Shown piece by piece: positions 1,414 to 25,988 of a stretch of DNA of 31,537 nt. Within the stretch, counting starts at the first letter, position 1. Every line of letters begins with the position of its first letter. The stretch is from Microgenomates group bacterium (GTDB lineage: Bacteria; Patescibacteriota; Microgenomatia; PFEM01; JBNASD01). The stretch covers positions 1 to 31,537 of the forward strand of contig JBNAVS010000001.1 in assembly GCA_049700235.1 (NCBI GenBank). Reading direction: 5' to 3'. A model generated the notes under the pieces. The model was not told where the DNA came from, ran no database searches, and saw only the letters and a list, made by a program, of their open reading frames with translations. The translations under genes were made by a program, and so were the position numbers.

Positions 1414-1813
1414 GATAAAACGAACTTGGCATTTGGTTGATGCCAAAGATAAGATCTTAGGACGTTTAGCAACGCAAGTTGCTAATTTACTTATGGGAAA
1501 AAATAAACCTTATTTTGTCCCTCATTTGGATTGTGGAGATTATGTGGTGGTGATCAATGCCTCTCAAGTTAAAGTATCTGGAAAAAAAGCAAAAGAAAAG
1601 AAGTATTATCGTCATTCTGGTTATCCTGGGGGTTTTAAAGAAATAACCTTTAGCCAACAAATGGCAAAAGACCCAAGAAAAATAATTTGGCATGCCGTTG
1701 CTGGGATGTTGCCAAAAAATAAATTGCGCGATAAGAGATTGACGAGATTAAAGATATTTGTTGATGAAAATCATCCGTATCAAGATAAATTAAAAATGAA
1801 AAATGAAAAATGA
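1385..1813 (+). CDS. rplM: 50S ribosomal protein L13
   Basis: WHLVDAKDKILGRLA...PHLDCGDYVVVINA...YRHSGYPGG...GMLPKN. The last codons (KMKNEK) come from an AAAAATG tandem array. Confidence 0.98.
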   Translation: MRTKSTKKSEIKRTWHLVDAKDKILGRLATQVANLLMGKNKPYFVPHLDCGDYVVVINASQVKVSGKKAKEKKYYRHSGYPGGFKEITFSQQMAKDPRKIIWHAVAGMLPKNKLRDKRLTRLKIFVDENHPYQDKLKMKNEK

Positions 1814-1819
1814 AAAACG
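1792..1819 (+). repeat. Heptamer array (AAAAATG)x3 + AAAAACG at the rplM/rpsI junction
   Basis: Read directly from the sequence; supplies the rplM stop and extra ATGs. Confidence 0.9.
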
Positions 1820-1829
1820 ACAATTAAAA

Positions 1830-2234
1830 ATGGTAAAATCGCAAAAATATATTTCTGCTGTTGGGAGAAGAAAGACGGCGGTGGCGCGCGTAAGACTTTT
1901 TAAAGGCAAAGGGGAGATTTTAGTAAATGGCAAACCTATTGCTGAGTATTTTCCGGGAGAAGTGGCAAAAGTTGCCTATCTTAAGCCATTTTCGGTTACT
2001 AATACTATTGGAAAATATTATGCAACGATAAAAGTTGAAGGTTCGGGGAAGAGTGGCCAGTTAGGAGCGGTTGTTCTTGGGTTGGCTCGGGCTTTGGATA
2101 AAGAAAATCGTGAACTTTATCATTCTCCTTTAAAAAAAGCCCATCTTTTAACCCGCGATGCCCGGGCTAAAGAACGCCGCAAGCCTGGCCAAATGGACAA
2201 AGCGAGGAAGAAAAAACAAAGCCCAAAAAGGTAA
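1830..2234 (+). CDS. rpsI: 30S ribosomal protein S9
   Basis: AVGRRKTAVARVRL...GSGKSGQLGA...LLTRDARAKERRKPG...QSPKR. Start at 1830 is preferred; the in-frame ATG at 1803 lies within the heptamer array. Confidence 0.97.
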   Translation: MVKSQKYISAVGRRKTAVARVRLFKGKGEILVNGKPIAEYFPGEVAKVAYLKPFSVTNTIGKYYATIKVEGSGKSGQLGAVVLGLARALDKENRELYHSPLKKAHLLTRDARAKERRKPGQMDKARKKKQSPKR

Positions 2235-2283
2235 AAACTACTTCGAGATTTACGAAAAAGTTAGAACCGAATTCCGCAAAGGT

Positions 2284-24094: not shown

Positions 24095-24106
24095 AATTTA
24101 ATAATA

Positions 24107-25948
24107 TCATACTTGGGGATTTTCTTTTTTGGGAAAAATCTTTTTTTGCTGTTCTTGAATTTGGGCTAAGATCTCTTCTGGTTTGGTGGTAATTAGGCGG
24201 TGTTCTTCAGGAGAGGCAACAACCCGGATGGCAACATGGTTGGTTCCGGCAAAAAACAAACCCTCACCAACATCAGCCGCCAGCAAAAGATGTTTTTCTC
24301 CCTCAGAAAGATAAAAAACCTTCCCTACTTTATCAATTGAGGAAGGAGCCTGTTTCATTAAAATCCTTAAAGAAGAATTGTTAATAATTGCCTGTCCTAA
24401 TTCGGTGGCTAAAAAGTCCTCAACATCTTGGGTAATCGTTGTCAAACCTAAGAAATACTTTCTTGCTCTTTTGGCAATTGAATTCAAAAACAAAGCCGAG
24501 TCTGGATATTTCATTAGATGCCAGGCTTCATCAACGATTAAAATCCGTCTTTTCATTTCTCTTTTAATTTTTGTCCAGATATAATCCAAGGTGATAAACA
24601 TGGCAATTGGCCGGAGGGCTTCTTCGAGTTCTTTTAAGGAGAAAACCGTAAATGGATTTTTAATATCAACATTTGAATGTTGGTCAAAAATCCCCACAAA
24701 ACTGCCACGAACGAATTTTTCTATTCTCGCAGCCAAGGAACTTGCCTCTGGTTGTTCCATGCCAATTAAAGTCTTGTAAAGATCCTCCATTAAGGGTGGC
24801 TCGTTTTTTTGGGTTGCTGGGTCTGGGGTAATCCCCTTCATTTTATAGGTAGCAACCAAGGCTCGATCTAAAATCGAGACCTCGATAGGAGTAAGTTCTC
24901 CCATAATGATTTTAAATAAAGAATGCAAGGAAAGGAGCTTCAACCTTAAATTGTCTTCCCCTTCTTCATAAACAGCGGAAAGATCAAAGGGGTTGATTTT
25001 TGCCTGAGTCCCGAAGCCAAAAGAAATATATTCACCCCCAACCGCCTCTGCTAAAGTTTTGTATTCTGCCTCAGGGTCAATGATAATAATTTCTGTCCCA
25101 AACATTAAAGAGCGCAATGCCTCAAGCTTAACCAGAAAACTTTTCCCGCTGCCGGATTTTCCAAAGACGACCGTGTTCGCATTCTCCATAGTAAAGCGAT
25201 CAAAAATAACCAGCGATCCGTTATGCTCATTAATCCCATACATAATTCCCTCATTTGCCGTTAGCTCCGAAGAGGTGAAAGGAAAAGTGGTTGCCAGCGA
25301 GGTTGTGTCCATATTGCGGGTAACCATTAGTTTGTCAATACAAGTAGGAATGGTCGTTTTGAATCCTTCTTCCATTTGTAAAGTGGCGTGTTTGGAGATA
25401 ATTAGAAGTGAGCCTAAAGTAGAGACGACCTGTTTAGAAACCTGGTTAAGTTCTTCCAAAGAATTTGCAGGAATAGTAATATAAAGACCGAATTGGAAAA
25501 ATCTTTCCGCTCCTTTCACTAGTTGCTCCTGAAGCTGACGAGCATCCTCAAGTTTGGCCACGGTTCCCGGATCAGGGAGGCGACCCTTTTCGGCGGTGAT
25601 TTGGAGCTCGGCTTCCATTTCGGTAATCTTCCGGCGCAACTCATCTAAGACCCCTTTTCCTTCCATTGGATAAATATACATCGCAATGTCCAAACTATGG
25701 TCAAAATTGATTAATGGTGCCAGCCAGTTGGCGGAGACAAACCGCGGATAACCGGCAATAAAAAGAGTTCGGAAGTATTTATTGCCAATTTTTAAATGAT
25801 CAAAATCAACCTCAATTGCTCCGGGAGCGATAATGTCCTGAACAGAGACAAGCCCCTTAGCTAATTGGGCAATAGGGTCAGCTTCTTGGTTAACGACCGG
25901 ATTTTGAGATGGCTTATTTTGGTTTTTGCTAATAAAAGGCAATTTCAT
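24107..25948 (-). CDS. virB4: VirB4-like conjugative/T4SS ATPase
   Basis: NANTVVFGKSGSGKSF (Walker A), IIIDPEAEY, INPFDL, LIVDEAWHL (Walker B) and RARKYFLGLTTITQDVEDF. Confidence 0.9.
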   Translation of the reverse strand: MKLPFISKNQNKPSQNPVVNQEADPIAQLAKGLVSVQDIIAPGAIEVDFDHLKIGNKYFRTLFIAGYPRFVSANWLAPLINFDHSLDIAMYIYPMEGKGVLDELRRKITEMEAELQITAEKGRLPDPGTVAKLEDARQLQEQLVKGAERFFQFGLYITIPANSLEELNQVSKQVVSTLGSLLIISKHATLQMEEGFKTTIPTCIDKLMVTRNMDTTSLATTFPFTSSELTANEGIMYGINEHNGSLVIFDRFTMENANTVVFGKSGSGKSFLVKLEALRSLMFGTEIIIIDPEAEYKTLAEAVGGEYISFGFGTQAKINPFDLSAVYEEGEDNLRLKLLSLHSLFKIIMGELTPIEVSILDRALVATYKMKGITPDPATQKNEPPLMEDLYKTLIGMEQPEASSLAARIEKFVRGSFVGIFDQHSNVDIKNPFTVFSLKELEEALRPIAMFITLDYIWTKIKREMKRRILIVDEAWHLMKYPDSALFLNSIAKRARKYFLGLTTITQDVEDFLATELGQAIINNSSLRILMKQAPSSIDKVGKVFYLSEGEKHLLLAADVGEGLFFAGTNHVAIRVVASPEEHRLITTKPEEILAQIQEQQKKIFPKKENPQV

Positions 25949-25953
25949 AAAAA

Positions 25954-25988
25954 TTTCTAATTTCTAATAACTAATGTCTAATGTCTAA
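25954..25988. repeat. Heptamer array (TKTCTAA)-like x5 immediately upstream of virB4
   Basis: TTTCTAA TTTCTAA TAACTAA TGTCTAA TGTCTAA. Confidence 0.88.

Follow-up and report, generated by a model that had tools for sequence, protein, structure and literature searches.

The window analysed here, a stretch of 31,537 nt, is contig 1 of a 592-kb Microgenomates-group (CPR) MAG, labelled G000, that is 83% complete. It carries rplM, rpsI, rnhA, tgt, a Wzy_C ligase gene, yidC, jag, rnpA, dnaA, dnaN and virB4, and short tandem arrays, mostly of 7-nt units, lie within or next to these genes. A preliminary description had reported period-7 arrays along the window, and Tandem Repeats Finder, with which we located the arrays, places them at the same positions. 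One decayed AGTGAWY array (14671..14705, −), close to the 3′ portion of the gene for the Wzy_C ligase, falls below the threshold of the program and was located by inspection of the letters, in which it is visible.

The arrays described at gene junctions were confirmed. An imperfect AAAAATG array of ~6.7 units (1787..1832, +) spans the rplM/rpsI junction, where it encodes the rplM tail KLKMKNEK, provides the TGA stop of that gene and contains an rpsI ATG. An AAAAGTY array (16206..16238, −) spans the yidC stop and the jag start; compared with L170, a relative with 82% dnaN identity, it inserts 21 nt (7 aa) into jag at the N-terminus. Between a traC-like gene and virB4 lies an intergenic array of CTAATNN words (AATTTCT, AATAACT, AATGTCT; 25952..25991), a member of a multi-copy family that forms long palindromes elsewhere. 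A weak period-7 tract is located upstream of dnaN (19429..19458).

Within genes, the arrays are in frame in tgt, the ligase gene, rnpA, dnaA and dnaN, and a 9-mer array is in frame in rnhA, in agreement with the preliminary description. An AAAGTYA array of 4.9 units (11548..11581, +) forms part of a hypervariable tgt loop (KVKSQKLKVKS) that has other units in relatives and is missing from some orthologues. The ligase gene contains a perfect array of 5.1 units with TACTTTT on the coding strand (15098..15133, −), which encodes the transmembrane segment LLFTFYFLLFT and aligns without gaps to orthologues, L170 carrying ATACTTT units at this site. It further contains a GTAACAC/GTAACGC array of 4.7 units (15382..15414, −; YVLRVTCYVL), which is length-neutral relative to the relative G001 and corresponds to a loop with a different short-period tract in L170, and a perfect TTCGTAA array of 4.4 units (15550..15580, −) in a loop (ELRITNYELR) that holds other arrays in G001 and L170. 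A weak CAACGAY array of 3.3 units in rnpA (17517..17539, −) is conserved in L170 with small changes, and a CAACAGG array of 3.9 units in the variable domain-II linker of dnaA (18157..18183, +) is lineage-specific, being present in neither L170 nor G001. In dnaN, a KAAAATT array of five units (20331..20366, +), perfect at period 14, encodes a beta-hairpin of the DnaN clamp (KFKIENLKLKI). A weak 3-unit array lies within a DUF4012/epimerase gene (5162..5183, −; peptide NVKCQIS).

The 9-mer arrays that had been reported are also present: 3.6 copies in rnhA (7305..7336, −; INSVNSVN), where L170 has a tract with a 7/8-nt period, five copies between a galU-like gene and orf86 (14235..14278), and a weak repeat of 2.6 copies in dnaN (20024..20046, +; EVEEVKEF). 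The period-9 excess in the genome is small, however, and seems ordinary for codon-multiple repeats.

Period 7 stands out across the whole genome, as the preliminary description had proposed. Exact arrays with at least three copies number 51 at period 7, compared with 3, 1, 2 and 3 at periods 5, 6, 8 and 9, respectively; with at least four copies, there are 24 at period 7 and none at any other period from 5 to 15. A mismatch-tolerant scan found 80 period-7 arrays compared with 0.0 across five third-order Markov simulations, and Tandem Repeats Finder, at a score of at least 45, returned 89, 11 and 13 arrays of periods 7, 8 and 9, respectively. A global 7-nt structural code was rejected because only a trace of genome-wide periodicity is left once the arrays are masked.

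The genome holds ~140 heptamer blocks, and 50 canonical units were distinguished among 139 arrays. The units had been described as unrelated, but recurrent families dominate: a few A-rich families recur, and seven canonical units make up 64 of the 139 arrays. The typical array is a block of ~31-35 nt, or about four and a half units. Perfect arrays, which are built of four full units plus 3-5 nt, have a length mode of their own at 30-36 nt, with a single array at 27-29 nt, and a 30-32-nt mode is present in non-coding arrays too. Around perfect arrays, neither target-site duplications nor terminal motifs were found, and the flanks are not conserved.

Of 140 arrays, 87 lie wholly within ORFs and 30 more overlap gene ends; gene edges and intergenic space hold 38% of the arrays, a several-fold enrichment. 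Intragenic arrays are open in frame, single variant units avoid in-frame TAA, and the A-rich orientation is always on the coding strand, so that these arrays are predicted from their reading frames to be translated. The same peptides occur in unrelated proteins (LLFTFYFLLFT, KFQIPNSKFQI and KSQKLKVKS). In the intergenic subset, heptamers often form inverted pairs, either as CTAATNN palindromes, in which the words hold five fixed positions and which occur as multi-copy elements at contig ends, or as the arms of the gene cassettes discussed below.

We followed the units of the dnaN array through L170, L172, L274, L275 and L276. The contig pairs L170/L171 and L172/L173 are each 100% identical, and the 90% cluster of dnaN has a single member. 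The array segment does not vary in length among the 120 homologues listed; it is periodic in most relatives with at least ~70% identity and mostly non-periodic at or below ~66%. The units at this site are AAATTTA/AAATTGA in the window, AAGTTCA in L170, AAGTTAA in L172, AAATTCA in L276 and CAATTCG in L274 and L275. One pair of DnaN proteins with 95.7% identity has 6 mismatches among its 14 array residues; nucleotide divergence is 0.35 inside the array compared with 0.105 outside. The L170 array shows a partial conversion, with G in units 1-3 only.

At the dnaN site, the unit AATTCGC is found in two diverged lineages, and L274 and L275 show 4 differences over 46 nt of array against ~25% divergence of the genes. 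The shared AATTCGC fits copying from other arrays or transfer of the segment at least as well as local homogenisation. The tgt and ligase sites behave likewise, with arrays in relatives that have different units and often equal length, and the arrays in the ligase gene, tgt and rnpA each keep the reading frame in the window as well as in L170 and G001. Length differences among relatives were 0, 21 nt or small codon multiples, and no difference of ±7 nt was seen. Not all of the arrays are insertions: several align without gaps to ancestral residues, an outcome that the preliminary description had named as a refutation of its reading but that here reflects rewriting in place rather than chance. 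Taken together, arrays at the same sites with changed units and often constant length speak for concerted copying in a 7-nt register and against slippage one step at a time. An assembly artefact was rejected since ENA, JGI and Logan assemblies, made independently of one another, have arrays at orthologous sites.

The preliminary description had suggested a dedicated repeat-generating process; in place of a dedicated enzyme, what emerged is a correlated gene family outside the window, an association that is our own observation. The genome encodes 9-10 PF05635 four-helix-bundle (4HB) genes in 592 kb (nine matches over the cut-off), each enclosed in a hairpin of heptamer words with arms of 33-59 nt and 73-82% complementarity; the cassettes examined lie between ordinary protein genes. 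The 4HB protein matches TIGR02436 (4e-31) and PDB 2GSC (8e-16), the latter being its only solved relative, Xanthomonas XCC0516. The Avd model NF033474 gives 26.5 bits against a cut-off of 80; the proteins fall in TIGR02436, a sister family of Avd.

The suggested check for co-occurrence of arrays with four-helix-bundle proteins was positive. Across 25 genomes, heptamer-array density, counted away from 4HB genes, correlates with 4HB copy number with a Spearman coefficient of 0.73, although the genomes are related and p-values therefore overstate the support; 15 of the 25 had been picked on 4HB count only, with their arrays still unseen. Controlling for Y1 transposase-like genes leaves a partial correlation of 0.59. 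In a class-wide sample of 112 genomes, drawn from a pattern search over 201 genomes that detects AAATT-type arrays only, the odds ratio for arrays and 4HB genes is 13 (p 2e-9, a significance inflated by relatedness). In this survey, of the 53 genomes lacking a PF05635 match, 9 have many AAATT-type arrays, and of the 59 with at least five copies, 4 have none of this type; arrays are also present without 4HB genes in the genome G095. Plasmid 4HB homologues are found nearly all in Nostoc-, Calothrix- and Anabaena-type cyanobacteria, where they are flanked by tandem arrays with a 7- or 8-nt period (inverted in three of four examined), and inverted heptamer arrays bracket 4HB genes in other phyla as well. 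In the literature that we searched, no paper deals with heptamer repeats in Patescibacteria or links PF05635/TIGR02436 to heptamer repeats.

Other candidate factors fared less well. The parallel check for reverse transcriptases was negative, with no PF00078 match in the source genome, at 83% completeness, or in 10 of 13 array-rich genomes, and a reverse transcriptase was ruled out on these grounds. Because MutS is missing both with and without arrays (in the source genome and in 22 of 25 genomes tested), loss of mismatch repair was rejected as a discriminator. One 230-aa RAYT-like ORF scores 45 bits against NF047646 (cut-off 80); Y1/RAYT-like genes track 4HB copy number but are not independently linked to arrays (partial rho −0.11).

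Knowledge of bacterial heptamer repeats goes back to 1990 (STRR). Like the arrays described here, the cyanobacterial STRR and the GGGGAYT/GGGAATC repeats of Nostoc and Xanthomonas (PMC4692102) are tandem heptamers, often in inverted pairs, and the taxa in which they occur likewise carry TIGR02436 4HB genes flanked by heptamer arrays. The STRR and G-rich repeats draw on a small set of fixed units and are intergenic, whereas at least 50 units, mostly A/T-rich and many of them predicted to be translated, are found here. The TAACTGA repeats of marine Beggiatoaceae, Microcystis and some Bacteroidetes form hundreds of intergenic arrays of 2-6 copies (PMC4679880). They resemble our arrays in being patchy across phyla and are sometimes translatable on the reverse strand, but they have one dominant unit, are almost wholly intergenic, and come with no reported in-frame arrays in essential genes or concerted unit turnover. 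The S23p (PF05635) ORF of the 23S rRNA IVS and the Avd protein of DGRs share the family with the 4HB genes, Avd as a distant match, and there too a long stem encloses the gene; the S23p IVS lies in rRNA, in contrast to the cassettes examined here, which stand without a reverse transcriptase. We found no published statement that S23p-type stems are heptamer arrays.

We consider it moderately probable that the arrays are products of DNA copying in a 7-nt register, filtered by selection, lineage-specific and going along with 4HB cassettes. A process acting at the DNA level would create blocks of 31-35 nt, or some four and a half units, at any genomic position and continually homogenise them, and purifying selection would leave intragenic blocks only where the frame is kept, stops are avoided and the peptide is tolerated, as in loops, linkers, termini, one beta-hairpin and transmembrane helices. 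The likeliest step, we infer, is that a nascent or repaired strand pairs out of register by one or two units and, on returning to register, overwrites adjacent units with the length unchanged; a net gain or loss of three units (21 nt) would be occasional. The host genes would gain no function from the arrays. We suspect that copying in the 7-nt register is promoted by the 4HB protein or its carrier element, or else that the protein or element depends on it.

The most serious competitor is that the arrays are ordinary heptanucleotide microsatellites, produced by replication slippage that would favour 7-nt units owing to the polymerase footprint and go unchecked for lack of mismatch repair, kept in frame by selection and needing no special factor. 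According to the summaries in PMC4692102 and PMC4679880, a 2007 survey by Mrazek and co-workers found heptanucleotides to be the most abundant class of long SSRs, the commonest in many bacteria; these SSRs have many units, with a preference for period 7 above periods 5, 6 and 8-11, and slippage with a polymerase-related register has been proposed. Our arrays resemble them in their head-to-tail 7-nt units, present in at least three copies as in the definition of these SSRs, in their varied sequences and in the over-representation of period 7. A fixed period with variable units, which the preliminary description had called atypical of slippage, is already known from heptanucleotide SSRs. MutS is absent from most of the genomes, in-frame 21-nt indels do occur, and a 10-14-nt seed plus three units would give 31-35 nt. 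The other part of that statement stands, as unit-by-unit slippage fits poorly with the 30-36-nt mode and the length-neutral rewriting. The 30-32-nt mode extends to non-coding arrays, rewriting in dnaN cannot pass through viable intermediates of plus or minus one unit, sister genomes that lack MutS have no arrays, and the association with 4HB genes is strong. Whereas heptanucleotide SSRs are mainly intergenic and come from large genomes, ~60-70% of the arrays here are inside ORFs of a 0.6-Mb genome, including essential genes, and they differ further in their own block-length mode, in being rewritten at constant length and in a density that tracks a gene family. We regard slippage alone as an unlikely explanation.

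Copying in a 7-nt register must also be weighed against miniature mobile or convertible elements, that is, ~33-nt blocks copied by ectopic conversion or by a HUH/RAYT-like enzyme, with the intragenic arrays as landed copies. The recurrence of seven canonical units, the identical array peptides in unrelated proteins, the close similarity of the L274 and L275 dnaN arrays, the palindromic CTAATNN elements at contig ends and the one weak RAYT-like ORF would all be accommodated. The bare flanks of perfect arrays and the one-for-one substitution of ancestral residues in many arrays would not, the Y1 transposase-like count shows no independent relation to arrays, and recurrence of units is also predicted by AT-rich composition, stop avoidance and peptide tolerance, which makes this explanation rather improbable in our view. 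Still less credible is that the arrays, at least those between genes and at junctions, are selected cis-elements, 7-nt-period binding sites or RNA signals for purposes such as operon regulation or 4HB binding. Their enrichment at gene edges and between genes, the fixed positions of the CTAATNN words, the hairpin arms around 4HB genes in several phyla and the proposed regulatory role of the Beggiatoaceae TAACTGA repeats (PMC4679880) speak for it, but units vary between sites and among relatives at one site, and intragenic arrays are placed by protein tolerance rather than at set distances from signals. Phase-variation switches, in which a one-unit change turns a gene such as the O-antigen-ligase-like gene on or off, would use the frame shift caused by a 7-nt unit in or near genes, as in Haemophilus 7-bp repeats (PMC8262952), and would suit four arrays in one surface-glycan gene, but this is very hard to accept because those SSRs are long, vary in copy number among isolates and affect surface and virulence genes, whereas the arrays here have only 4-5 units, are of constant length across relatives (in dnaN among all homologues listed), stay in frame in the ligase gene of the window, L170 and G001, and are identical in kind in dnaA, dnaN, tgt, rnpA and ribosomal-protein genes, among them genes of replication and translation, where the off state is lethal.

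Returning to copying in a 7-nt register, a more speculative extension concerns the protein itself. Avd forms a positively charged barrel of five subunits and binds nucleic acid (PMC6182149). TIGR02436 proteins, likely pentameric barrels, might conceivably be the trans-acting part of a widespread, reverse-transcriptase-independent system that writes or homogenises heptamers, with one subunit per 7-nt unit and five units spanning ~35 nt. Such a system would explain the repeats of cyanobacteria (STRR), Xanthomonas and Patescibacteria and would mutate loops at constant length; we regard this as doubtful.

What is new compared with known heptamer repeats is the presence of arrays within essential genes, the turnover of units at constant length and a density that tracks 4HB genes. 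Heptamer repeats can thus sit, probably translated, inside essential genes, and their evolution by concerted, length-conserving rewriting in a 7-nt register calls for something besides stepwise slippage. Their abundance follows a small, structurally known protein family that is also typical of the classical heptamer-rich taxa. Heptamer arrays also cause assembly breaks and annotation errors. Should the link to 4HB proteins be causal, it would reveal a DNA-editing or mutator system of a new kind and supply a role for a "hypothetical" protein that is very common. Even without causality, the arrays repeatedly generate variation in the loops and linkers of proteins in ultra-small bacteria.

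Tandem Repeats Finder (TRF) recovered all of the heptamer arrays and the three 9-mer arrays listed in the preliminary description of the window, the genes of which comprise rpoA-rplM-rpsI, tgt, a Wzy_C ligase gene, jag-yidC-rnpA, dnaA-dnaN and a VirB4 cluster. The window is contig C1 of an assembly of 592,552 bases in 97 contigs (39% G+C, 83% completeness), assigned by its closest named relatives to the Microgenomates group of the Patescibacteria (CPR). In the whole assembly, the excess of period 7 over other periods was overwhelming: exact arrays of at least three copies numbered 51 for period 7 versus 3, 1, 2 and 3 for periods 5, 6, 8 and 9, respectively, and exact arrays of at least four copies numbered 24 for period 7 and 0 for the other periods within 5-15. 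A mismatch-tolerant scan yielded 80 period-7 arrays versus 0.0 per third-order Markov genome, and at TRF scores of at least 45 there were 89, 11 and 13 arrays of periods 7, 8 and 9. The proposed period-9 component exists as those three arrays, but its genome-wide excess is small, and such arrays are unremarkable, as a period of 9 is divisible by 3. After array masking, almost no 7-nt periodicity remained in the genome.

At TRF scores of at least 40 we counted 140 period-7 arrays, 87 entirely within ORFs, 30 across a gene end and 23 intergenic; arrays are therefore several-fold enriched outside genes, yet common inside them. Their units, previously described as unrelated, are not: 50 canonical units cover 139 arrays, and seven of these units account for 64 arrays. 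The coding strand always has the A-rich orientation (e.g., AAATTCC, AAATGTC, AAAAGTC, AAATTCG), and the peptides KFQIPNS, KCQMSNV and KSQKSKV, encoded by A-rich units, recur across unrelated proteins; TACTTTT units encode LLFTFYF in transmembrane helices. Where a unit would place a stop codon in one reading phase out of three, its intragenic arrays always carry a variant at the in-frame unit, such as G for T in the dnaN array of the window or C for T in that of the relative L172. The lengths of exact arrays are bimodal. Those up to 15 nt form a chance background and fragments follow at 16-21 nt; hardly any array measures 27-29 nt, and a further 23 make up the second mode at 30-36 nt. No exact array is longer than 40 nt. 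Perfect arrays consist of four full units plus 3-5 nt, and a search for conserved flanks and target duplications around them found none. The 30-36-nt mode (median 32-33 nt) is also present in other genomes and is less sharp outside open frames.

Alignment with orthologues only partly bore out the idea that arrays are insertions, since some are clean in-frame insertions but others are residue-for-residue replacements. The N-terminus of jag carries a clean in-frame insertion of 21 nt (7 aa) relative to L170, a relative's DNA segment, and elsewhere in the genome several arrays are 7-aa insertions relative to the closest species representative, the Microgenomates MAG G001 (DnaA identity 77%). In the dnaN array, in two ligase arrays and in several transmembrane arrays, each residue takes the place of an ancestral one. 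The dnaN array is the most informative case. The spacing across the dnaN site is identical in all 120 homologues listed; most relatives with at most approximately 66% identity have an ordinary beta-hairpin sequence there, and most of those with at least approximately 70% identity have a 33-nt heptamer array with different units in exactly the same place (AAATTTA/AAATTGA in the window, AAGTTCA in L170, AAGTTAA in L172, AAATTCA in L276 and CAATTCG in L274 and L275). In one pair of DnaN proteins that are 95.7% identical overall, 6 of 14 array residues differ, and dnaN nucleotide divergence is 0.35 inside the array versus 0.105 outside. At the ligase sites, too, the arrays of the window, L170 and G001 differ from one another. 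In tgt (window 10687-11850), a hot-spot loop lies at residues ~287-300 between GRMGxIL and FTYDITK. Close relatives keep 12 loop residues, with units encoding KVKSQKL, KIQNPKS, KFQIPNS or KSQNSNV; some relatives have 4 or 7 residues more, and the loop is missing from distant orthologues. Overall, homologues range from no loop to at least 30 extra residues, many with heptamer-array peptides.

It follows that a change at one position of the unit spreads to the other units at constant length. In L170, the dnaN array has a G in units 1-3 that is absent from units 4-5, which looks like partial conversion. Most economically, a nascent or repaired strand would misalign transiently by one or two units and then return to register, thereby converting neighbouring units at constant length; net three-unit changes would also occur, if rarely. 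Miniature elements that disperse, or ectopic conversion from one array to another, may account for part of the pattern, and near-identical AATTCGC arrays in two diverged dnaN genes favour copying between arrays or transfer of a segment, at least in some instances. Plain slippage may also contribute in part; stepwise gain or loss of single units cannot spread a change at constant length in an essential gene, since each intermediate would be out of frame. Some intergenic arrays may have cis-regulatory roles. As a general reading, phase variation is unlikely, since essential genes harbour arrays and array length is constant from relative to relative.

The suggested co-occurrence with a gene family was confirmed for four-helix-bundle (4HB, PF05635) proteins. 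We determined period-7 density in samples of 23-380 kb from 24 other genomes plus the present one, 15 of these genomes having been chosen by PF05635 count only, before arrays were looked at. All 13 genomes with at least five PF05635 copies had arrays (1.3-26 per 100 kb), and 9 of the 10 with none had no arrays; copy number correlated with array density across the 25 genomes (Spearman rho 0.73, excluding arrays up to 300 nt from a 4HB gene). In a class-wide pattern search of 201 genomes for AAATTNN-type arrays, 43 of 59 genomes with at least five copies had at least 10 matches and 4 had none, versus 9 and 32, respectively, of 53 genomes without PF05635 (odds ratio 13, p 2e-9, uncorrected for phylogeny); whole families have both 4HB genes and arrays or neither. 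The association is strong, not absolute. Reverse transcriptases, also suggested, showed no such association: none (PF00078) was found in the 83% complete genome, and their presence was unrelated to arrays across the 25 genomes. MutS (PF00488) was missing with or without arrays, from 22 of 25 genomes including this one, so canonical mismatch repair appears generally lost in the class. The number of Y1-transposase-like ORFs rises with that of 4HB genes (rho 0.82, 25 genomes), but these ORFs are no independent correlate of arrays (partial rho -0.11 versus 0.59 for 4HB). In the present genome, one 230-aa ORF (C44:1493-2185) is weakly similar to REP-associated tyrosine transposases (45 bits, cut-off 80); ORFs of this kind could mobilise the hairpin cassettes.

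A profile search found 9-10 PF05635 genes in the genome; both proteins scanned were TIGR02436, "four helix bundle protein". The cassette genes lie outside the window at C62:2218-2523, C34:4009-4320, C86:652-954, C21:3625-3942, C48:4016-4327, C19:353-637, C2:13049-13375, C2:8429-8734 and C54:1919-2218, and all four loci examined in detail are single-gene cassettes between inverted arms (33-59 nt) of heptamer words. Such arms also surround the gene in relatives, one gammaproteobacterial MAG and one Treponema MAG. Plasmid matches to the protein (32 records) come almost all from Nostoc, Calothrix, Trichormus, Anabaena, Scytonema and similar cyanobacteria, the taxa for which STRR heptamers have been reported. 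The gene has inverted heptamer arrays on both sides in Nostoc punctiforme and Calothrix PCC 7716; the two heptamer arrays that flank it in Nostoc PCC 7120 lack mutual complementarity. On a plasmid of Picosynechococcus sp. PCC 7003 (NZ_CP016476.1 125082-128399), the gene and inverted 8-mer arrays lie between cas10 and cmr3 of a type III-B operon. One CRISPR survey counts "23S rRNA IVP" as a protein found in association with adaptation modules (PMC10910872); such insertions of cassettes into cas operons may explain that association.

Other elements are also built of heptamers. A palindromic element of ~140 nt composed of CTAATNN words (AATTTCT, loop, TTGGTCA-type words) occurs at C19:8600-8741, C72:2870-2999, C84:2130-2268, C53:1-70 and C92:1-110, with a half copy at window 25952-25991; being often at contig ends, it probably breaks the assembly. 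The 16S rRNA gene has arrays of GGTTACG, AATTTCT and AATGGCT directly upstream of it (C96:87-200 and 423-1385), and a GGTTACG array, at the rRNA gene or elsewhere, is also present in G001. Model positions 9-546 of the 16S rRNA cover 755 nt, indicating an insertion of ~200 nt. Nucleotidyltransferase/AbiEii-like and MntA-HepT-like toxin-antitoxin modules (window 7521-8081 and 27843-28701) lie near the T4SS-like cluster, and an AbiEii gene of L170 occupies another position within the syntenic block.

Earlier publications, summarised in PMC4692102 and PMC4679880, cover the over-representation of heptanucleotides with varied units, the idea of a polymerase footprint, cyanobacterial STRRs and the TAACTGA repeats of Beggiatoaceae. 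The repeats they describe lie essentially between genes, whereas 87 of 140 arrays here are wholly inside ORFs. Our literature search turned up no publication that deals with heptamer arrays in Patescibacteria, with constant-length rewriting of translated arrays in essential genes or with heptamer repeats being linked to TIGR02436/PF05635.

The 4HB proteins are distant relatives of Avd, the accessory protein of diversity-generating retroelements, which forms a pentameric, positively charged barrel (PMC6182149); their sole solved relative is Xanthomonas XCC0516 (PDB 2GSC, five chains in the entry). Because Avd is pentameric and arrays comprise approximately five units, it is tempting to imagine one 4HB subunit per 7-nt unit. 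The 4HB protein may promote arrays, or the cassettes may depend on an array-making process of the host. We infer that intragenic arrays arise non-adaptively, by copying in a 7-nt register, and that selection then filters them.
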